Positions 25,198-62,871 of a stretch of DNA of 64,000 nt are shown here, piece by piece. The stretch lies in sequence record OR896830.1; one strand, 5' to 3'. A program made the position numbers and the translations under genes. Source of the stretch: Escherichia phage LinBro. The notes beneath the pieces are model-generated. The model was not told the origin of the DNA and searched no databases. It saw only the letters and a list, made by a program, of their open reading frames with translations. Positions within the stretch are counted from its first letter, which is position 1. Each line of letters opens with the position of its first letter.

Positions 25198-25713
25198 TTA
25201 CTTAACCTCAAAAACTGGCTCAAGAACCAATATAAAGTCTACACAGTCATCTTCTTCATCCAGAATACCATCAAAGTTCTTAGGAACGAAGTCGAAGAGG
25301 CTCATAACAAAACAGTCAGAAGTGACCCTGATAGTTCCTCCCATGTTCTCTACAGTTAACACTGTACGACTTTCTTTTACCTCCCTCAGAAGATTACTCA
25401 CAAAGTCATCTAAGAAGTACTTCATCAGTGACTTGAAACCTTTAGGATAATCTGTACCAGAGTATGTTTCAATCTGTGGTACAAGCTTAACATTTATACT
25501 AGTCTTTGTTAAGAACGTTTTAGAGAACATACTATCAGGTAACTTACAAACAGTCTTTCCAGTACCTTCATGCTCAATCTCAACAAAACCAGCTTCATCG
25601 CCACATGTAACTATTTTAAAAGATGCTTCATTCTCATACTGTGAAGCCATAAACTTTTTAAGCATTTCTTTAAGGAAATCTGCATGAGCATCCTGTAAGA
25701 AGATATCAATCAT
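25198..25713 (-). CDS. hypothetical protein
   Basis: 171 aa ORF, tightly packed with neighbours. Confidence 0.4.
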   Translation of the reverse strand: MIDIFLQDAHADFLKEMLKKFMASQYENEASFKIVTCGDEAGFVEIEHEGTGKTVCKLPDSMFSKTFLTKTSINVKLVPQIETYSGTDYPKGFKSLMKYFLDDFVSNLLREVKESRTVLTVENMGGTIRVTSDCFVMSLFDFVPKNFDGILDEEDDCVDFILVLEPVFEVK

Positions 25714-26593: not shown

Positions 26594-26977
26594 TCAAATA
26601 CCTGTGCAGCTTCTGTTTTCTAAGAAATACTCAACACCGTACATAGCTTTTTGCATCAAATCTTCTTTAAACTGGATACGGTGGTTGAGCATAGACTGTA
26701 CATCAATATCATCACGGTGTTTCTCTTTAATGTTTGCAGATTGCAGGAAATACTCTGCAAGAACACGATACTGGTAGTCAGTCACCTTATCAGTCATCTC
26801 TGTTAAAGACTCTTCAGAGATTGGTTTAAGTAGCTCACCATTCGCTAGAGCAACACCCTTTACAATCTGACAAGTATCCTCTTGGACGCCTGATAAGTTC
26901 ACATTTGGTAGTTCTGTTGAATGAACTGGTAAACTCATTGTCATAACCATTGCAGCAGCTAATAAAATCTTTTTCAT
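26594..26977 (-). CDS. secreted/periplasmic protein with signal peptide
   Basis: N-terminal MKKILLAAAMVMTMSLPVHS signal-like sequence; RBS GAGG upstream. Confidence 0.5.
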   Translation of the reverse strand: MKKILLAAAMVMTMSLPVHSTELPNVNLSGVQEDTCQIVKGVALANGELLKPISEESLTEMTDKVTDYQYRVLAEYFLQSANIKEKHRDDIDVQSMLNHRIQFKEDLMQKAMYGVEYFLENRSCTGI

Positions 26978-29851: not shown

Positions 29852-30408
29852 TTAGTGTACTTCAAGCCAATTCTTACCAACTTTACCAGTACCAGTTACA
29901 AGCGTTTCCTCCTTAAGTCCTAAGTTTCTTGATGCCTGACCATACATCCAGTCAATCACTGCTTTAACATCTTGTGTCATCTCTTCTGGGCACTCCCAAC
30001 TGTTCTCATCGTGGTATGCTAGAAGCAATCTAGCACCAATAGCTGGTTTTCGACCATTCAGCTTTGTAAGACCCTCTTCACAAGTTCTTCTACAAGCGAG
30101 GTTGATGGCTTCATTCTGAACCTGACTTTCCGAACCCATGAGCAGATAATTCAATAGTTTGTGTGGAGATTTACACCACAACCATGCACCAGCAACCTTT
30201 ACAAAACCACCTTTAGAGATTGCAGCAGTCTTACCAAATACCTCTTCAAGAGCCTTCTTAGTGGCTTTGAAGTCAGCTTCCAAATTATCTATCAACTTTT
30301 TAATCTTAGGGAGGCGTACAAAGTAAGTTTGCTTAGTTAAAGCACCTTCTTCGGTTGTTGATGCTTTAATCGTCTTGGCAAACTTCTCATCACCTGCCCC
30401 AAACAATA
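29852..30408 (-). CDS. DNA polymerase (family A), exon 2
   Basis: Begins LFGAGDEK (end of O-helix/motif B) and contains motif C LLLAYHDE; joined in frame to exon 1 by predicted splicing. Confidence 0.7.
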
Positions 30409-31209
30409 CATCTGGTCAATACACTCGCAAGGTGTACCAGTTCTCTTATGAACTTCTCCGCATTTCTACGGAGTGTCGGACTATATCACGTAGTAGTAAT
30501 ACTACCGTTGCACTTGGGAATGGTCATTAGCTTACCACCCTACTCTACTCAGTTCATACATTAAGTATGCTTTTCGATAGTCTCTGAACGTTTCTCTGTT
30601 AGGAACTCTAAAATACTATTGTTTACTAAGGTATGCAATTGCTCTCTGCATATTATCAACGCTATCTGCAAGCAACCCCAAAGCCCTATTGCAATTGTGG
30701 CACAACATACCTCTTACTTTTCCGGTTTTGTGGTCATGGTCAACGACAAGTTTAGCCTTATGCCGTGAACTATTCATGATAAAACCTTCACCGCCACAAA
30801 TTTGACATTTGTAATCACAGTTACGAAGTAGGGTTTCAACCTCTTCTCTTTCTAAACCATATGTTCTCAGGTAGTAATTCTTAACTCTACCTTTCTCTCC
30901 GCAATGCGAAGAACAATAAACTTGCCTTGCTGTTCTAGGCATGAACACCTTCTCACAGCTAGGACATTTCTTAGTAAGAACCCTATGTTCTGCTCTTCTG
31001 TCAAATTTTAATACGCAACTTCTGCACCGTTTTTGATTGTATTGGTATGGTTTAAACTCTGCACCACACTCAGTACACAATCTCTCTTTGTAACCTGCCA
31101 TTGTCTCTCTCCTTTGCTTTAGGAGTCCTAACAGAGACTTCGCTGCTGATTACCATATCTTTACAGACTTAGGCTTCCAGCAATTCACAACGTTTTACAT
31201 GCGCCACTG
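30409..31209 (-). mobile_element. group I intron interrupting the DNA polymerase gene (carries an HNH ORF)
   Basis: Exon 1 ends in U (31210) and intron ends in G (30409); P1 helix exon UAUGCGU with guide GCGCAUG (31204-31198); core elements GTTCAGAGACTA (30589-30578) and GATATAGTCC (30487-30478) on - strand; exon lengths sum in frame (2173+557=2730). Confidence 0.75.
30616..31101 (-). CDS. intron-encoded HNH / endonuclease VII-family homing endonuclease
   Basis: Cys-rich zinc ribbons (CTECG, CRSC, CPSC, CQIC) and VVDHDHKTGKVRGMLCHNCNRALG catalytic motif. Confidence 0.7.
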   Translation of the reverse strand: MAGYKERLCTECGAEFKPYQYNQKRCRSCVLKFDRRAEHRVLTKKCPSCEKVFMPRTARQVYCSSHCGEKGRVKNYYLRTYGLEREEVETLLRNCDYKCQICGGEGFIMNSSRHKAKLVVDHDHKTGKVRGMLCHNCNRALGLLADSVDNMQRAIAYLSKQ

Positions 31210-33382
31210 ACGCATAAATGCCATTCTTGGCTTTCTTACGACCCTTACTAATTTCTTGAAGAAGGTTTGTATCCTGAGTAGCTCGACAAGTCAAGATATC
31301 TTCCTCTTTATTAAGGCTGAAGTAGATGCTATTTAAAGTATGCGCATCAGTTCCTGAGTACACCACGTACAAGTCATTTTCAGAATCATAATGCAAATAC
31401 TTGTCAATCTCTGGGTTTAGATACTGGTCAAAATGTTTGCAATAGTATCTGCCATCCTCTTGTTTGACAAACTCAACTTCTTCTTTACCCTCTGTCACTG
31501 CTTTGGTGAACTCTTTATCACCCATAAAGTTACACAGCAGTACAAGTTGCGCGCTATTCATATCTGCTGAAACAATATTAGTTCCTTCTTCACAAGTCCA
31601 CACCTCCCTCATAGGTGCTCCATAGACAGCAGCACCAGACGGTACGTTTACAATACCATATTGTGTCATACGTCCAGTTGAAGTACCAAACACCATTGCA
31701 CCAGCACTAAGGCGACCATCAGGACGAATCTGGTTCAACCAACCTTTTTCATCATCTTTTGAGTTCTCAATAGTTCTGCGTCGGTGCATTAAAGTATAGT
31801 ACTTAGCAATCTTCTGTCCAAGCTCACCTTCAATCGTATCATAAGATGATTCAGTAAGTTTTGGTGAAGTACGGATTAAGCAAGGCTCAAGCAAATCTGT
31901 GTACTTCTTCACAGACCAGTTATGCTCAATGTACTGTACACCTTCATGTTCAACATAACTCAAACCACACCGCTCAACCATTTCCTGCCACTTAGGATGC
32001 TTTGTAATCATCTTTTTATTGTCTTTGAAACGACAAACTTTAACAGGGCGACCATCTGAGTCTTTCTTGTAGTTCCAGTCATCTGGAATCCAACCAACTG
32101 ATTTCAAGTAGTCTTTAACAACTGCTACCTGAGTCATACGAGAAACTTCGAACTCAATTGGTGTATATGGTGCATCAATCAAACCTGTGTAGCGACTTGA
32201 CTCAAGTTCAAAGTGATTGACAACGTGACTGTTATAGTACTTCACAGTCTTGACTGTTTTTACTGGTTTCCAGTCTTTGCATTTTTTGCCAATCTTTGCA
32301 TTCAACTCGTTGCAGATTGCACGAGCATCCTTCATCGCTACAAAACCCTCTTTGTACTCTTCACCAGTTACAGAGTTGGTTGGTGTATAGCAATTTCTCT
32401 TTTCAATGTTAAAAATCTTTGTAGTTGGCTTACCAAATGGTTTGATTTCATAAGTCTGCATCTCACCATTACGTACCTGCTGACGGTACTTTGTCTTAGG
32501 GTACTTGGTAATTCTCTTCAGTCCATCTGCATGACCAAATGTTTCAACATACTCATTCCAAGCTTTTGCAAACTCTTCTCCAGTCACTTTACCTTTGGTC
32601 TTAATAGTTGGAGGTAGATGTGGTTCAACCTCTGAAGCAAGCTCATTAGTCAACTTGTCAAGTTCCTTTACATGGAACTCCATAAGCTCCTTATCAGCTT
32701 TCCAACCATTGATAGCTTGTTGACTCATCCAGAAAGATGTTTCTTTAGCTCGCATATAGGTTTCATAAGTATCTATGCCACACTTCTTAAGCTTGAGATA
32801 CTCATTATCAAGTGCCCGTTTAGTTTTGGCGTTAATACGGATATCTTCTACAACACGAGTGAAGATTTCTGCATTCCACACACCCCAATGTTCAATCTCT
32901 GGTTTACGGACACCAACACGAGCACCCCATGCAGCCAAACCATGAGCACCTTTATAACCCTTTGGGGTTGGCCTATCCATCCACTGAACACGAGACTGGA
33001 TAAGAGAATCCTGAAAGAAATTACTCCACGGCTTACATTTTGGATTATCAAAGTTCCATAAATCAGGCGCAATGTGATTGAAAACCCACCAGTCATAGCC
33101 GAGACCATTATGGATGCAAAGACGTTTTGCCTTTAACGCAAATTCAACACCTTCACGTAAGCCGCCCTTGATGTACTTAGTGTACTTGTGACCGAGGATA
33201 GGTTCATCTGTAAAGACCCATACAGGTGGCTCTTCATCATCAGATTTATAGTCTGCGAAAGCCATTACGTGCACTTTAGTGAACTCAAGGAGTAAACCAT
33301 CAGTTTCTGTATCACCAACCAAATGTAAGTTTTTAAAATCTACGTTTTCCATTTTTACTCCCTCTAAAATCATTAACCTCAT
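31210..33382 (-). CDS. DNA polymerase (family A), exon 1 with 3'-5' exonuclease domain
   Basis: Exo I motif HLVGDTETDGL near N-terminus; motif A-like IVSADMNSAQL; motif B start RKKAKNGIY just before the splice site; the track ORF continues 41 nt into the intron to stop at 31169. Confidence 0.75.
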
Positions 33383-33547
33383 ACATTACTGCAAAAAATT
33401 ATAAAAAGCAAGTTGACAATGCACTTGACAAGGTGTTAATCTTTGCGAAGTGGGTTTTTACTTAAAAGGTTACTTAACAGTTTAACTATACAGATACTTT
33501 AAAACTCTTAAAAGATTATTTAATAGCTTTTAAAAAGCTTTAAAGTA

Positions 33548-33566
33548 TAACGTATAGAATACGTTA
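33548..33566. promoter_or_regulatory. perfect 8-3-8 palindrome (TAACGTAT-aga-ATACGTTA), candidate operator
   Basis: Read directly; ~45 bp upstream of first rightward early gene in AT-rich divergent intergenic region. Confidence 0.4.
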
Positions 33567-33609
33567 AGATAAAAGATTAAAACTTAATAGCTACTTAAAA
33601 GAGGCTTAC

Positions 33610-34032
33610 ATGCAGAAAATGTTTGTTCACCCAGACATAGCTGACTTTGTTAGAGCTTTGCAGAAGTTGGAAGAACTTGACATTGCTGCTCAACGGGAAT
33701 ATGCTCACCATCACAGGAGAATGGTTGATATACAACATGAAATAGAGTTGTCTGAAGACTATGAAGATGACTTAAAATGCTCTGTATTTGAGCATATGAA
33801 AGATGTTGCTACAGCGAGACGTAAAGCTAAAGACACAGTTGCTTTACTAGATTCTCTTAAAAAGAGGTTGCAAAGTGGTACAGACCTGTGTAATCTAGCA
33901 TCACTGATTAACGATGTTGAAACTTCTTGGGATAGGCACTATTATCCACGTTCTGAAAAGACACTTGACTTTTCTTCATCCGAAAACTTAAAATGTTCTA
34001 GAAAGAAACTTAACCAACTGAGAGAGAAATAA
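33610..34032 (+). CDS. hypothetical early protein
   Basis: 140 aa ORF, first gene of rightward block, RBS aaaagagg. Confidence 0.4.
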   Translation: MQKMFVHPDIADFVRALQKLEELDIAAQREYAHHHRRMVDIQHEIELSEDYEDDLKCSVFEHMKDVATARRKAKDTVALLDSLKKRLQSGTDLCNLASLINDVETSWDRHYYPRSEKTLDFSSSENLKCSRKKLNQLREK

Positions 34033-34033
34033 T

Positions 34034-34834
34034 ATGAATATCGATGTAGAAAAGATGCTTGAAGAGAAAGGTGTTGATGAAGCATTCTTAATCAATGCCG
34101 TAGAAAGCATGGCTATGATTCTTCGTGGCAACAACTACACAGAACAGTTTATGCCTGCAAGCTATAACTTGCCTGAAGACAAGTCTGATAACGGTGCTTT
34201 TGCAGAACAGGTTAATATGATGTTGACAGACACTACACTTGCTCTGGCATCTATTGCGGTTGGTGTTGATGCACTTGCTGAGTTCATTTTTTATGAAATG
34301 CAAAAGAATGACTATATCAGGATGTCAGACGAAGATAAGGAACTGTTGCTGACTAAGGACACTGATTTCATTATTGATACGCTTATCTCATCAACGAGTG
34401 CTGTTATGGCTGTTCTTGAGAAGCGTATGGAAGAGAAACTTTCACGATATGAAAAACTTGATTGGGGCGTAGAAGAATTAAACCCACGAATCAAAGAGAT
34501 TATCCAGCAAACTAAAGAGTCTTTGGAAGAAGCTGTTGAAAATGACTCTGTAGCTGACATTGAACCACTTCAGGTGAAAGTTGCACTGATGATTCCAGCT
34601 ATATCTACGATGATGAATATCGTTGCACTAATCCAACTGTCACAGATGATGGGTGTGAGTATTGAGTTCATTGAGGAAATGACTGGTGGCGTTAGTATGC
34701 AAGCAATCAATGATGTTTTGGTGAACATTGGTGCTTCAATCATTGAAGAGAAACTACGCATTAACTTCGGTGATGATTTTGTGAAGCAAATCTCAGCTAT
34801 GGCTGAAAAAGAGGCTGCTGAGCAACTGCACTAA
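34034..34834 (+). CDS. highly acidic early protein (hypothetical)
   Basis: 266 aa with strong excess of Asp/Glu over Lys/Arg. Confidence 0.4.
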   Translation: MNIDVEKMLEEKGVDEAFLINAVESMAMILRGNNYTEQFMPASYNLPEDKSDNGAFAEQVNMMLTDTTLALASIAVGVDALAEFIFYEMQKNDYIRMSDEDKELLLTKDTDFIIDTLISSTSAVMAVLEKRMEEKLSRYEKLDWGVEELNPRIKEIIQQTKESLEEAVENDSVADIEPLQVKVALMIPAISTMMNIVALIQLSQMMGVSIEFIEEMTGGVSMQAINDVLVNIGASIIEEKLRINFGDDFVKQISAMAEKEAAEQLH

Positions 34835-34852
34835 GTCTTTATAAATCTTACA

Positions 34853-34876
34853 AGCCTCCTTAGTTGGGGGCTTTTT
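34853..34876 (+). terminator. rho-independent terminator
   Basis: AGCCTCC-ttagtt-GGGGGCT hairpin (one G-U pair) followed by TTTTT. Confidence 0.55.
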
Positions 34877-34895
34877 AGTAATTAAGGGAGATAAA

Positions 34896-35639
34896 ATGAG
34901 TAATATTATCGCATTTACTGGAAAGGCACGTTCTGGAAAAGACACCTCATGTTCTATTGTGAAGAACATCTTAGAGGATGAGTATGGCTACAATGTTGCT
35001 GTAATGGCCTTTGCAGACAACCTTAAACTATCTGCATCAAAGATATTTGACTTGACTTGGAATGACCTGTACGGTGAAACTAAAGAGACTCCACAGGTTT
35101 TTGACTTATCATACTCTGAACTGATGTTTAAAGTTACGGAAGCTATGGAGTTCACCTTCAGAGATGAACGTTACCATATGGACTTCAAGCTTATGTCAGA
35201 GTTAACCGGACGATTAATCATGGAGCTTAAGAAGGTTGCTAAACCGACTCTATTGACACGTCTGGGGTTTAGTAAAAAGTATAAATTCTCATCAAGACAA
35301 ATTCAACAGGTTTGGGGTACTGAAGTTGTCCGTAAAGTAATGGGCGACAAGTTCTGGTCTAAAGACCTTGAAAAAAGAATGGTTAGATTCCATGAAATGT
35401 GCTCACTTAGAAACCAATATGGTTTTGTCTTAATCAGTGATTTAAGATTTGACTCTGAAGCTGAATGGCTGAGTAGATTTGCACACCAAACTATTGAAGT
35501 AAAAAGAGACAATGTGGACAAAGTTTCATCACATGTTTCAGAAAATGGGATTTCTACAAAATATGAGCGTGACATTATTCATAATAATGGTACTCTTGCA
35601 GACCTTGAGAACAAGCTAAGAGCCATCATTAAAGTTTAA
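34896..35639 (+). CDS. deoxynucleoside monophosphate kinase
   Basis: N-terminal IIAFTGKARSGKDT P-loop matching the T4 gp1 dNMP kinase N-terminus (recalled from memory); 247 aa. Confidence 0.55.
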   Translation: MSNIIAFTGKARSGKDTSCSIVKNILEDEYGYNVAVMAFADNLKLSASKIFDLTWNDLYGETKETPQVFDLSYSELMFKVTEAMEFTFRDERYHMDFKLMSELTGRLIMELKKVAKPTLLTRLGFSKKYKFSSRQIQQVWGTEVVRKVMGDKFWSKDLEKRMVRFHEMCSLRNQYGFVLISDLRFDSEAEWLSRFAHQTIEVKRDNVDKVSSHVSENGISTKYERDIIHNNGTLADLENKLRAIIKV

Positions 35640-35647
35640 AAGAGAGA

Positions 35648-35848
35648 ATGAAGATGAGAGTAAAAGACAATTTTAAAGTTATTGACCACCGTTTAGTGGA
35701 ACTCTCATCTCTTTCCAATGAGGTAATGATTGAACGTCTTAAGAGGGTTGAATCACGAAGGAAAGAGATTGCAGATGAAATTCATGAACTGGACAAGATT
35801 GAAAATGGATTGAAGGAAGAACTACAACGAAGAGGTGCTAATGTCTAA
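35648..35848 (+). CDS. hypothetical coiled-coil protein
   Basis: 66 aa ORF. Confidence 0.3.
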   Translation: MKMRVKDNFKVIDHRLVELSSLSNEVMIERLKRVESRRKEIADEIHELDKIENGLKEELQRRGANV

Positions 35849-37826
35849 AGGTCGTAAATTGAAAGAGGCTGGTCAGTTTGTTGGTCATTGCGCATGTCCA
35901 CGTTGTGGTTCATCAGATGCTGGTTCAATCTATCATCATGACGATGGTTCTTATTCAATGACTTGCTTTAGTTGTAACAAAGGTTTCCCAGAGTGGGATT
36001 TTGATAAAGGACAAATCGTGAGCACTTATTCTACTGGTTCAGACAATAAAAACCGTACTTTCCGTGGAATGGATTTAGACGATGTGAAAGAAAACCTTGA
36101 AGCAATGGACTTAAAGGATAGGAAGATTCCTGCAAAAGTCCTTGAACGCTTAGGTATCAAGGTTGACATTGACAGTGACGGTGAAATTGATGCGCACTTC
36201 TATCCAACTTACAAACGTAATGAAGATGGTAAGCTGGAACATGTTGGCTACCGTGTTCGTCACCGTTACCCAGAAGACCATCCAAAAGAGCACCTACGTG
36301 GTAAGCTAAAAGACTTTTCTGGTGGTGTTGGAGACATTAAAGGTGAACTAGCAATGTTCGGTTCATGGATTGCTCCAGAAGGTGGTAACCGTCTATTCAT
36401 CTGGGAAGGTGAGATGGAATGTGCGACAGCAATCTATATGACTTCTCTTGCGATTAAGGACAAGTCTCGTCGTAAGAATTACTGTCACGTATCTGTTCCA
36501 TCAGGTGCAAACATTAAGTCTATCAAAGACAACTATCAGTACATCACATCATTTGATGAGATTTACTTGTGCTTTGATAACGATGAAGCAGGTGCTAAAG
36601 CCACTAAAGAGGCTGCTGGCATTCTCCCTATCGAGAAGGTTCGTTTATTCCAGTATCCAGAAGGTGTAAAAGACCTTAACGAATGGTGGACAAAGTTCTA
36701 TAAAGAGAAAGATACAGTTCTTGAAGGGTTTAAGCAGCGTATATACAATGCACCCCGTTACTGCCCTGCTGGTATCAAGAACTTCGCAGATGGTTTTGAG
36801 GCAATGAAGAATCGTGGTCAGATTCCATTGATTCCTTTCCCAGAATCATTCGGAGATTTGAACAGACTGACTTATGGCGGTTATGGTTTAGGTGAGATTA
36901 CAACTCTGGCAGCACCCTCTTCAGTGGGTAAATCTGCATACACTCGTGAAATGATTTACACAGCTTGGAAAGAAACCGATTACAATATTGGTGTAATTCC
37001 TGTAGAAGATACCTATGAAGAGTTGATGGAGATGCTTTGTGCAATCCACCTTAGCAAGCAGATTTCTGAGATTCCTTATGACGAACGCGATTGGGATGAA
37101 TTGAAGGAAGCACACGCAGAACTGTCTAAAGGTCGTCGTATCCACATCGTAGACCATCAAGGGGCAATTGACCAAGATAACTTGCTGGAGTTTGTTGACT
37201 ATCTTGTTAATAGCTTAGACTGTAAGATTATTATTCTTGACCCTATTACGTTGGCTCTGTCACGTTCAGATACGGATGAAGAGGAAGTTTTGTCTGAGCT
37301 ATTGCGTCGTTGCAAACGCTACCAGTATGCACAAGTGAACGTCTGTCACGTTCGTAAGAGTGCAGGTGGTCAGAAGGCTAACTCTGAAGGTGGGGATATC
37401 TCTGAAGAGGATATTAAAGGCTCTGGTGCGTATTTCCAGATTTCTATGAACAACATTCTGTTAATGCGTAACAAGGTTGACCCAGACCCTGTTAAGAAAA
37501 ACTTGACAAAAATCAAGCTAACTAAATGTCGTCGTCACGGTAAGTCAACGGGTATTGCTGGTCATACTTGGTACAATCCAGATACAGGACGCCTCATCAA
37601 AGCATCTGGTTGCGGAGTTGACATTGATGGTGCAGCAGAAAATATTCGCCAACAGTTTGGTATTGGTGAAGCTGAAGACCATTACGATGACTCTTTGCCA
37701 CATTATGAGGATGAAGTGTTTGACCGTGAGACTGGTGAAGTCTATGCTGAAGAGCAGCGCCAAAGCTCAACGATTCCACCTGTATTAAGTGAGGATGCAG
37801 ATGACTGCCCATTCGAAACTGAGTGA
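35835..37826 (+). CDS. bifunctional DNA primase/helicase
   Basis: N-terminal zinc ribbon CACPRCGSSD...CFSC, central TOPRIM-like region, C-terminal DnaB-like Walker A LAAPSSVGKSAYT. Confidence 0.7.
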   Translation: MLMSKGRKLKEAGQFVGHCACPRCGSSDAGSIYHHDDGSYSMTCFSCNKGFPEWDFDKGQIVSTYSTGSDNKNRTFRGMDLDDVKENLEAMDLKDRKIPAKVLERLGIKVDIDSDGEIDAHFYPTYKRNEDGKLEHVGYRVRHRYPEDHPKEHLRGKLKDFSGGVGDIKGELAMFGSWIAPEGGNRLFIWEGEMECATAIYMTSLAIKDKSRRKNYCHVSVPSGANIKSIKDNYQYITSFDEIYLCFDNDEAGAKATKEAAGILPIEKVRLFQYPEGVKDLNEWWTKFYKEKDTVLEGFKQRIYNAPRYCPAGIKNFADGFEAMKNRGQIPLIPFPESFGDLNRLTYGGYGLGEITTLAAPSSVGKSAYTREMIYTAWKETDYNIGVIPVEDTYEELMEMLCAIHLSKQISEIPYDERDWDELKEAHAELSKGRRIHIVDHQGAIDQDNLLEFVDYLVNSLDCKIIILDPITLALSRSDTDEEEVLSELLRRCKRYQYAQVNVCHVRKSAGGQKANSEGGDISEEDIKGSGAYFQISMNNILLMRNKVDPDPVKKNLTKIKLTKCRRHGKSTGIAGHTWYNPDTGRLIKASGCGVDIDGAAENIRQQFGIGEAEDHYDDSLPHYEDEVFDRETGEVYAEEQRQSSTIPPVLSEDADDCPFETE

Positions 37827-38082
37827 TAGTTATAAAAGAGAGGGGTTCACACCCTTCTTTGAAGAAAAAAGTTTAAATAAATTTCAGGAAGAGTGTTTGA
37901 CAAAGATTGATAGACTCTATAGAATGCTCCTCATGAAATGCGATGGAGAGGTTGAGATAAAAGAAGATTTTCACCAGAGCATGATTACAGTCATCATTGC
38001 GCTGCCTCAGCATAATATTAGTTGGCTGTTTATAATTAAAGAAAATGTGTTTGAATATCAAGTATATCGGAGAATATCATGA
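37789..38082 (+). CDS. hypothetical protein
   Basis: 97 aa ORF overlapping the end of the primase-helicase gene; start uncertain. Confidence 0.3.
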   Translation: MRMQMTAHSKLSDSYKREGFTPFFEEKSLNKFQEECLTKIDRLYRMLLMKCDGEVEIKEDFHQSMITVIIALPQHNISWLFIIKENVFEYQVYRRIS

Positions 38083-38300: not shown

Positions 38301-39158
38301 ATGTCTAAAGTTGTTAAAATGAAAGCTCCGGTAGAGAAATACAATGGTACTGAACGCCAAACTCTGCGATACCTGCTGAAAGATGTCTGGTTTTATTACC
38401 TGAACACTTCACCACGTCCGGGAAAAGGTAAGTCTATTGATAAGAAATTCCCAGGCAAAGACTGTAACTACAGCGTATCAATTCTGGCAGAAGACGGTAA
38501 CAAACTGTTTAAAGAGTTTACTAAGTCTAAGAAAAATCCAGAAGGCTGGGATAAAGTCACTACTGAAGCAGTTGATGCAGATGACTTCGAAGAGAAGTTT
38601 GGTTGTAAACCACCTTTTGAAGCAGACACTTACTACATCTTGAAAGTAAGTCGTGCAGCAGCTTATAAAGATGGTGCTGTGTGGACAGCTAAACAGTCAT
38701 TCCCTGTAATGCTGATTGAAGAAGTAAATGGTAAGCGTGTAGCTGTTAAACAGCCGATGAAGAAAATCAAAGCTCAAGCATCTGACAAACATGAAGATGA
38801 TAAGAACTATGATGTAATTCATCCAGATATTGCAGTTGGTAACGGTTCTTTTGGTAGTGTGATTCTTTCTACTCACTTCTACACTTTTGAGAACAATGTC
38901 CTGACAAAACCTATTCAGGAACAGTTTATCATTGACACTCTTGTACCTTACACTGGTGGTAACGGTACTAATGGTGAACCTGAACTGGATGAAGATGAAC
39001 TGGCTATGCTTGGTCTTGATGGTGTCGAAGATAACGGTGAAATCACTGAAGAAGACGCAACAGACCATAAATCTTCGAATGATTCTGATGATGGTGACGA
39101 TGAAGACTTGCCAGACCCAGATGACGAAGAAGATGAAGACTTCGATACAGAAGACTAA
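38301..39158 (+). CDS. single-stranded DNA-binding protein (candidate)
   Basis: 285 aa with extremely acidic C-terminal tail DDGDDEDLPDPDDEEDEDFDTED as in phage SSBs; sits between primase-helicase and exonuclease; strong promoter. Confidence 0.45.
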   Translation: MSKVVKMKAPVEKYNGTERQTLRYLLKDVWFYYLNTSPRPGKGKSIDKKFPGKDCNYSVSILAEDGNKLFKEFTKSKKNPEGWDKVTTEAVDADDFEEKFGCKPPFEADTYYILKVSRAAAYKDGAVWTAKQSFPVMLIEEVNGKRVAVKQPMKKIKAQASDKHEDDKNYDVIHPDIAVGNGSFGSVILSTHFYTFENNVLTKPIQEQFIIDTLVPYTGGNGTNGEPELDEDELAMLGLDGVEDNGEITEEDATDHKSSNDSDDGDDEDLPDPDDEEDEDFDTED

Positions 39159-49590: not shown

Positions 49591-49776
49591 AAAACGTTGA
49601 TATACATACTCCACATTCTAATCTTCTTCTTTGGGGTTAGTGTTATGGTATGGGGTTTTTCAGACCCACAATGGAGTTTATCATATCACGGACAAATGGA
49701 TTTATGGTCATGCTTCAAACCATTTTTAGGGTTAGCTATAGCATTCAGTGCATTACCAACTAGGGTGAAATTATGA
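49576..49776 (+). CDS. small membrane protein
   Basis: 66 aa with two hydrophobic segments. Confidence 0.3.
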   Translation: MFKISKTLIYILHILIFFFGVSVMVWGFSDPQWSLSYHGQMDLWSCFKPFLGLAIAFSALPTRVKL

Positions 49777-50168
49777 TTAAGTTGAACCAAAAACAGTTAG
49801 AGTGGGTTAAAGACTACACCTCAGAGTGTGGCTCTTGCGAAAAGAATCACGTAAAATACTCAACATTCCATACAGTCTTCACATTGTACATCAGCGACAA
49901 TGTTCTAAGCGACTCCGTAGAAGACGGTGTAGCGTTGCCTAATGAGTTACTTGATAAATTAGCTGTAGTCACTGGAACTTGGTCTGAAGAAGATGGTCAT
50001 GAATTATCTGATGATGTTGTCTTCTACACCCTTGAAAACATCATGAATCCAGAGTACATTATGCTAATGACTTGCGCGCAAGACTGTGTTCCATTACAAG
50101 ACTTTATTAAAGAACACTGTGAAGAGTTTATTACTAAACAGGTTCCTTGTGAGGTGGTGTTTGAATGA
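49773..50168 (+). CDS. hypothetical acidic protein
   Basis: 131 aa ORF, ATGA coupling. Confidence 0.3.
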   Translation: MIKLNQKQLEWVKDYTSECGSCEKNHVKYSTFHTVFTLYISDNVLSDSVEDGVALPNELLDKLAVVTGTWSEEDGHELSDDVVFYTLENIMNPEYIMLMTCAQDCVPLQDFIKEHCEEFITKQVPCEVVFE

Positions 50169-62342: not shown

Positions 62343-62669
62343 ATGCAGATTAATGGAAGAGACTTTGTAGCCGTTTACTATGAGAAAGGTAAAGAAGTTG
62401 GCGTAGCACAAGTATCTTATGGCAATGGTAAGTGGCTATATGGAACAATCGCAGTAGTTGGAACAAGAAGTGATACAAAAACTTTTAAAGACTGTGTTGA
62501 CCTTCTTGAAGAATCCATCCATAATCATTGGTGTCTGATATGGATGACTGACAACGAAGTGATAGAACGCTTCAAAAAGATTGGTATCAACATTGATAGT
62601 ATTGAGCATGTTGATTTATATGAACTAACTGAGAAGGTAAACTATGAAAGTAATACTAGCCAGAGATAA
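62343..62669 (+). CDS. hypothetical protein
   Basis: 108 aa ORF. Confidence 0.3.
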   Translation: MQINGRDFVAVYYEKGKEVGVAQVSYGNGKWLYGTIAVVGTRSDTKTFKDCVDLLEESIHNHWCLIWMTDNEVIERFKKIGINIDSIEHVDLYELTEKVNYESNTSQR

Positions 62670-62871
62670 AAAGACACGGAAAATTATCCGGTCAGCAGTA
62701 TTTATTGGAAGAAATGAAGTGATTCCTTTTACAGCAAATGATGTGATAGTCTACAGGAAAAAATTAGCATTCAGTTATTGCTTACGTGGCTTTATCTCCC
62801 AGCCATTAGAAGATTTTAAAAATCGTTGTGGTAAAGGCATCATCATTCAAGAGGCAATTATTCATGGCTGA
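62644..62871 (+). CDS. hypothetical protein
   Basis: 75 aa ORF. Confidence 0.25.
   Translation: MKVILARDKKTRKIIRSAVFIGRNEVIPFTANDVIVYRKKLAFSYCLRGFISQPLEDFKNRCGKGIIIQEAIIHG

Follow-up and report, generated by a model that had tools for sequence, protein, structure and literature searches.

The gene studied here, which we call ORF98, lies in a 64,000-nucleotide stretch of Escherichia phage LinBro (record OR896830.1), hereafter the window. The window is a Felixounavirus genome: over region 33400-35700 it shares 99.9% identity with Escherichia phages phiWec172, phiWec174 and phiWec177, and 98-99% with many further Felixounavirus genomes. Exactly where the initial annotation had placed a 266-aa protein, an ATG-to-TAA open reading frame of that size is found (Table 1), the homolog of ORF98 of phage Felix O1. 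It was also correctly described as the second gene after a control region, as it follows ORF97, whose TAA stop codon (34030-34032) is separated by a single nucleotide from the ATG of ORF98 at 34034, and ORF97 borders the intergenic region from which the DNA polymerase gene diverges. This region is presumed to be the control region; a scan of its + strand for sigma-70-like promoters found none, and in the Felix O1 paper divergent promoters were assumed here and a consensus promoter was not found. The terminator announced after the gene is present as a hairpin with a T-run (dG -13.4 to -13.9 kcal/mol, z = -2.8); a terminator is annotated at the equivalent site in phages KhF2 and Moogle, and Felix O1 has the same one. 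ORF98 is a real gene, found by tblastn in 258 phage records, with at least 80% of its length covered in each, and subject to purifying selection (dN/dS 0.16).

Table 1. Features of the ORF98 locus and segments within ORF98 (window coordinates)
Feature	Coordinates	Strand	Remarks
Intergenic region, AT-rich, 227 bp	33383..33609	.	Splits DNA polymerase (-) from the ORF97/ORF98 operon (+); presumed control region
ORF97 homolog	33610..34032	+	140 aa, helical, phrog_4039
ORF98 homolog (Felix O1 ORF98 / Bas63 gp49)	34034..34834	+	266 aa, pI 4.2, predicted all-alpha, phrog_4251, labelled 'minor tail protein'
Mosaic hot spot, residues 90-122	34301..34399	+	Loop, helix 99-107, start of helix 110-133
Most conserved segment LEKRMEEKLSRYEKLDWG, residues 128-145	34415..34468	+	Basic/aromatic, end of helix 110-133 and following loop
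Terminator-like hairpin AAGCCTCC / GGGGGCTT + T-run	34852..34878	+	Intrinsic type
Deoxynucleoside monophosphate kinase (dNMP kinase)	34896..35639	+	Pfam DNMK, E 8.6e-22; downstream neighbour of ORF98

The surroundings of ORF98 are arranged alike in all genomes examined, with DNA ligase, small ORFs, in some cases an HNH gene, and DNA polymerase following one another on one strand, and ORF97, ORF98, the terminator, dNMP kinase, a small ORF, primase/helicase, further small ORFs, ORF104 and the exonuclease on the other. The slot of the gene, running from the polymerase-divergent region through ORF98 to the dNMP kinase, was found in Felix O1, KhF2, Moogle, SUSP1 and Bas63, as well as in the distant contigs L037 and L039, and the adjacency of ORF98 and dNMP kinase is kept in all relatives examined. 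Every record with a Felix-type dNMP kinase in the Escherichia, Shigella, Citrobacter, Enterobacteria and 'Felixounavirus' name groups also has ORF98; when we speak of a core gene, we refer to these equal per-group counts of ORF98 and dNMP kinase records. In the window, the DNA polymerase gene itself (29852..33382, - strand) is split in two, the parts encoding 737 aa (31169..33382) and 184 aa (29852..30406). Between them lies an endonuclease VII/HNH homing-endonuclease ORF (30616..31101), and 31050..31186 (-) matches a group I intron below threshold (28.1 bits, E 3e-4). The gene is unbroken in Felix O1 (2721 bp) and Bas63 (2730 bp), and the same split is annotated in phages Si3, JH2 and BPS15Q2.

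The window protein is 96% identical to Felix O1 ORF98 (NP_944960), with equal length and position. Its counterpart in Bas63 (JohannRWettstein) is gp49 (bas63_0049, QXV81740), again of equal length and position, and phrog_4251 is matched over the full length (E 6.8e-145, residues 2-265 against profile positions 1-264 of 266). All of these belong to the same gene family and show no material difference from the window protein. Besides this own PHROG, searches of Pfam, NCBIfam, PADLOC and PHROGs gave no family above noise: with 12 diverse members as queries, Pfam returned no match at E<=0.1, and PADLOC and NCBIfam yielded just sub-threshold Csn2 noise. In the PDB, sequence searches with profiles built from 19 and 12 sequences found nothing below E 0.05. 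Word-indexed and HMM searches located homologs in the Ounavirinae only (Felixounavirus, Suspvirus and Mooglevirus), together with three distant metagenomic members (P0063, P0066 and P0067), the contigs of which were retrieved by exact-sequence look-up; a metagenome scan for distant members found nothing, and an exhaustive HMM search of 1.84 billion representatives returned 10 matches, all from this same small family.

The distant members, as well as some of the more remote relatives of these phages, show how the slot is occupied elsewhere. P0067 has the same position in the 87-kb contig L037, and since its distance to the polymerase gene is just 374 nt, ORF97 is absent from that lineage; P0066 likewise lies upstream of dNMP kinase and primase/helicase. 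Conversely, ORF97 is present, at 47-53% identity, in Pectobacterium phage Wc4 and Erwinia phage phiEa104 (Kolesnikvirus), where the slot of ORF98 is occupied by other acidic proteins, namely gp094 of phiEa104 (L034 4090..4941, 283 aa, pI 4.4) and a 273-aa protein of pI 4.8 in Wc4 (L033 4097..4918). Comparison of ORF98 with these slot proteins by BLAST, hmmsearch and hhalign gave nothing significant, and a homolog search from phiEa104 gp094 returned two close relatives and nothing more; they have either diverged from ORF98 past recognition or are non-orthologous replacements of it. ORF97 carries a conserved HHHRxMVDxQHExELS motif; the one hint at its role is that Gam-like nuclease inhibitors are weakly matched among the PHROGs (E 0.024).

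With a pI of 4.20, the lowest of all window ORFs with 100 aa or more, and a net charge of -29 (-0.11 per residue), the protein is clearly acidic, as had been claimed, but it is not dominated by Asp and Glu, which together account for only 50 residues (18.8%) against 21 Lys and Arg (7.9%). Its hydrophobic core is large (I/L/A/V make up 91 of the 266 residues, plus 19 Met), and the acidic fraction is equal or higher in two more window ORFs, 38301..39158 (21.8%) and 49773..50168 (19.1%). The latter (+ strand) encodes 131 aa with a pI of 4.3, 6.1% K+R and several Cys, has a charge per residue of -0.13, more negative than that of ORF98, and is 51.6% identical to its SUSP1 counterpart. The former (+ strand), the homolog of ORF104, encodes 285 aa, belongs to phrog_3877 ('unknown') and lies just upstream of the exonuclease; it bears a long acidic C-terminal tail (...SSNDSDDGDDEDLPDPDDEEDEDFDTED, ...DDEEDEDFDTED) resembling that of T7 gp2.5, and is probably the unannotated single-strand DNA-binding protein (SSB) of these phages. 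Across the ORF98 family the net negative charge is retained (pI 4.2-4.8, net -14 to -29), with about 20 of the 50 acidic positions having an acidic residue in 5 or more of 7 lineages, and it is weaker in the distant members (13-15% D+E, net -14 to -17).

The structure predicted from a shallow alignment was poor (pLDDT 62), and with the three distant members added it improved to a pLDDT of 88.2 and a pTM of 0.87. The improved model consists of 13 helices, without any strand, and amounts in essence to a bundle in which five or six helices are long; a search of BFVD with the earlier model returned own-family members only, and comparison of the N-terminal and C-terminal halves gave no signal of an internal duplication. 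Across 12 diverse members, 8 columns are invariant and a single one of them is acidic, which argues against a metal-dependent enzyme and led us to reject an all-alpha NTP pyrophosphatase of the MazG-like type. A membrane protein was likewise rejected: two segments reach a Kyte-Doolittle value of about 1.8, both of them are buried as core helices in the model, one holds D and E, and the other has K or E in homologs. The most conserved segment (residues 128-145) is basic and aromatic, L128, E129, K130, R131, R138, Y139, D143, W144 and G145 being invariant in 19 sequences from three genera, and a P-R-[YN] plus K pattern is retained in the distant homologs P0066 and P0067. The protein occurs naturally in forms of 266 and 270 aa, which differ by a 4-aa indel near the C-terminus.

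Among the large genes, ORF98 evolves fastest. It is 43.6% identical to its SUSP1 counterpart, the fifth lowest value among about 90 shared ORFs and the lowest among those longer than 200 aa; the tail fiber (59.5%), RIIA (62.8%), dNMP kinase (70%), ORF97 (75.5%), DNA polymerase (93%), ORF104 (94.5%) and primase/helicase (96%) are all better conserved. In comparison with Susp- and Mooglevirus, identity is 36-43% for ORF98, as against 84-91% for ORF104, 93% for DNA polymerase and 92-97% for primase/helicase. Of the shared ORFs, just four, all small and hypothetical, differ more from SUSP1 than ORF98 does (32-39% identity): 26594..26977 (-), 25198..25713 (-), 37789..38082 (+) and 62644..62871 (+), which are candidates for further rapidly evolving accessory functions. 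Within Felixounavirus, copies of ORF98 are 85-99% identical to that of the window, ORF97, ORF100, primase/helicase and ORF104 being at 97-100%, and the ORF98 allele is uncoupled from those of its neighbours, as in locus L019, where ORF98 is at 86% and both neighbours are at 99%. The allele types are not sorted by host genus, and both main types are found in Escherichia and in Salmonella phages.

Variation within the genus peaks in the mosaic hot spot: nucleotide identity to other Felixounavirus loci is 57-62% in 34300-34399 and 82-83% in 34200-34299, with flanks at 93-100%, and 19 of the 30 residues from 91 to 120 vary. In this hot spot dS is 0.83 and dN/dS 0.25; its boundaries are sharp, and as most changes are synonymous, its alleles are old and are being exchanged by recombination. 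For the whole gene, dS is 0.40 (neighbours 0.10-0.27) and dN/dS exceeds that of the neighbours (0.015-0.10), and no positive selection was detected, dN/dS being well below 1 throughout, hot spot included. The pattern shows purifying selection acting on old alleles, which are swapped through recombination.

Published data on related phages place the product among the replication functions and outside the virion. By RT-PCR in Felix O1, ORF98 reaches its maximum at 25 min, as do ORFs 96, 97, 99 and 101, which are DNA polymerase, ORF97, dNMP kinase and primase/helicase (PMC3185647), and tail genes 72, 73, 76 and 77 peak at 60 min. Hence the term 'early' used in the initial annotation is approximate. 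Mass spectrometry of the Felix O1 virion identified 17 proteins, with Gp98 absent; in VpaE1 the virion comprises 22 proteins, the Felix O1 set plus gp54, gp58 and gp68, and the ORF98 counterpart is again absent; and the cryo-EM study of Bas63, which covers at least 23 gene products and has models for 22, does not name gp49 anywhere in its text. The name 'minor tail protein' stems from phrog_4251, RefSeq and UniProt, and the product was given as 'unknown' in the original Felix O1 GenBank deposit. The gene lies outside the tail/baseplate module, between DNA polymerase and dNMP kinase, and the protein has no similarity in sequence or fold to characterised tail proteins. Given the absence from three virion inventories, the position in the replication module and the expression with replication genes, we consider this label not supported. 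The Bas63 study notes a mislabelling as tail components for other Felixounavirus proteins.

Taken together, these data portray ORF98 as soluble, non-enzymatic, all-alpha and acidic, confined to the Ounavirinae, produced inside the infected cell along with the replication genes and absent from the virion. We infer that ORF98 acts by binding another protein, and that this partner belongs to the host. In the mechanism that we propose, the partner would be a variable host component, for example a nucleic-acid-handling enzyme or a defence system, and ORF98 would serve as a host-takeover or counter-defence factor rather than as a subunit of the highly conserved phage replisome; the basic/aromatic loop 128-145 and the conserved helical core may form the functional scaffold, with the mosaic segment 90-122 and the variable termini as putative target-tracking surfaces. 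A non-enzymatic binding factor directed against a variable host target is the explanation that we would tentatively choose, at somewhat less than even confidence. As our best guess, a host-directed binding factor ranks first, followed by an accessory role internal to the phage, with a DNA mimic low in the order.

Several lines of evidence lead to this choice. The product is not found in virions, belongs to the replication phase, is net negative family-wide and lacks an enzymatic signature, having no match to any family or PDB entry and 8 invariant columns with one of them acidic. It diverges far faster than the phage proteins that would be available for docking, its alleles move independently of their flanks within the genus, and in Kolesnikvirus and Wc4 unrelated acidic proteins fill its slot while ORF97 persists. 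A subunit docking onto the polymerase or helicase should share their conservation; ORF98 does not, so that a variable partner, or else a loose constraint, fits better. On the other hand, ORF98 is a strictly syntenic core gene, whereas counter-defence genes are more often found in variable accessory regions; with dN/dS well below 1, its fast divergence could also reflect weak constraint on a helical bundle; and the allele types show no sorting by host genus. The case for a host-directed role of this orphan protein is circumstantial. In the text reporting a PhageMaP knockout screen of Bas63, which covered 4 hosts and 12 defence systems, g49 is mentioned neither as a counter nor as a trigger, and the literature on Felix O1, wV8, VpaE1, Bas63, PhageMaP and DRT7 holds no functional statement on ORF98. 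The proposal of a host-takeover factor made in the initial annotation would still give the best fit, considering the non-enzymatic appearance, the transcription with replication genes, a divergence exceeding that of the tail fiber and the shuffled alleles; the DNA mimic named as the alternative there is not supported.

It is also conceivable, although we regard this as rather doubtful, that ORF98 is an accessory of replication or nucleotide metabolism working within the phage programme, with no host target at all. Such a role could take the form of an adaptor or organiser through which dNMP kinase, polymerase and primase/helicase are connected, of a partner of ORF97, or of a regulator of middle or late transcription, possibilities that are covered by the same doubt. 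The fixed slot between DNA polymerase and dNMP kinase in every relative, the distant metagenomic ones included, would be accounted for in this way, as would the spacing of ORF97 and ORF98, which is of the kind seen in translational coupling, the co-expression with ORFs 96, 97, 99 and 101, the status as a core gene paired with the Felix-type dNMP kinase throughout five name groups, and the purifying selection; in addition, the conserved basic/aromatic loop could bind a nucleotide, nucleic acid or an acidic partner. However, the putative phage partners are 90-97% conserved between genera and ORF98 only 36-43%. An obligate complex with ORF97 is unlikely, since each of the two occurs without the other, the L037 lineage having an ORF98 homolog and no ORF97 and Kolesnikvirus showing the converse. 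Moreover, the T7-type set of polymerase, primase/helicase, exonuclease, ligase and dNMP kinase, together with the candidate SSB ORF104, leaves no obvious vacancy.

A DNA mimic, as first suggested for this gene, would be an elongated acidic helical bundle filling the DNA site of a host enzyme, for example a type I restriction enzyme, RecBCD or BREX. The total charge of ORF98 is close to the -28 of T7 Ocr, the protein is predicted to be all-helical, as are Ocr, lambda Gam and T7 gp5.9, about 20 of its acidic positions are kept across lineages, and it is encoded in a replication-side operon, T7 gp5.9 also being located in the replication module, beside the exonuclease. Nonetheless, we judge this explanation improbable: the charge density is about half that of Ocr, the acidity drops in distant family members, the best-conserved element is a basic/aromatic loop rather than an acidic array, and no sequence, profile or fold link to anti-restriction or defence-related families was found, which includes profiles of Ocr/ArdA and other known anti-restriction families. 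In addition, Bas63, which carries ORF98, is reported to be remarkably sensitive to several RM systems (their types are not stated in the text), and it has a separate Lar-like gene, g32, to which its restriction alleviation is credited.

The tail function implied by the databases would still have some room in Bas63, where the cryo-EM map shows one helical C3 density, two helices per 120 degrees, that sits at the puncture-apparatus tip and is assigned to no gene (PMC12609058), and it seems to gain from the Felixounavirus phages Eifel1 and Eifel2 of Citrobacter rodentium (PX596620, PX596621). These two phages show only two differences, one extra ORF and a 12-bp deletion in a 'minor tail protein' gene that is predicted to affect an alpha-helix of the C-terminal domain; the burst size of Eifel2 is 46 versus 14, with an equal latent period, and an effect of the indel on attachment or DNA injection was proposed. 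Their annotation was made with Pharokka and Phold, both PHROG-based, and none of 10 tail-module proteins of the window carries the PHROG label 'minor tail protein', which the ORF98 homolog does; the deleted gene is therefore probably the ORF98 homolog, a 4-aa indel of that protein being then one of the two changes accompanying the difference in burst size. Yet a minor tail or baseplate protein, for instance the helical component at the Bas63 tip, is very improbable, because mass spectrometry of two virions lacks ORF98, the Bas63 authors place their missing component in the baseplate module (PMC12609058), some 13 kb separate the gene from the structural module, its surroundings being replication genes, with which it peaks, it has no tail-family similarity and was deposited as 'unknown', and the Eifel phenotype is one of burst size and not of adsorption.

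Returning to a host-directed binding factor, a broader scenario may be put forward, although only as a speculative possibility: the family might consist of new-fold acidic inhibitors of about 30 kDa, one in each Ounavirinae phage, which would sit in a fixed slot of the replication operon, exchange their alleles by recombination and act against a variable host nucleic-acid enzyme or defence, the slot proteins of Kolesnikvirus and Wc4 being diverged counterparts. The question has practical weight, as Felix O1-like phages are widely used in Salmonella and E. coli diagnostics, in biocontrol and in therapy. Most of the Felix O1-like records that we examined name ORF98 'minor tail protein' against the virion data, and this mislabel already steers interpretation, as in the Eifel phages, where the indel was tied to attachment or injection though the phenotype concerns burst size. 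No other large conserved gene of this genome, not even the one for the receptor-binding fiber, is as divergent as ORF98, whose fold is predicted with confidence and has no solved relative, all of which makes it a sensible first target in a search for host-takeover and counter-defence functions of the Ounavirinae.

The composition of T7 Ocr and gp5.9 was measured with the same script as that of ORF98. The T7 SSB gp2.5, an OB-fold protein whose acidic C-terminal tail has Phe as its last residue, is similar to ORF98 in size and acidic pI and in belonging to a T7-type replication gene set; an SSB of this type was rejected for ORF98, given its 13 predicted helices, the lack of strands and a C-terminus (...KEAAEQLH) with no acidic tail. 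The RecBCD inhibitors T7 gp5.9 and lambda Gam share with ORF98 an acidic, helical character and the lack of enzymatic motifs, and are encoded near replication or recombination genes; no similarity to ORF98 was detected for either. T7 gp5.9, directly upstream of the T7 exonuclease, is much smaller (52 aa, 25.0% D+E, -0.15 per residue), and lambda Gam has 138 aa, so that ORF98 with its 266 aa far exceeds the size range of these inhibitors and of Ocr. T7 Ocr (gp0.3), a DNA mimic that inhibits type I restriction and BREX, shares with ORF98 an acidic, helical character and expression before the late genes, with no sequence, profile or fold match between them; it packs 29.1% D+E and -0.24 charges per residue into 117 aa, against the more dilute 18.8% and -0.11 of ORF98, and it is encoded by the first gene to enter the cell, whereas ORF98 belongs to a replication operon and peaks in mid-infection.
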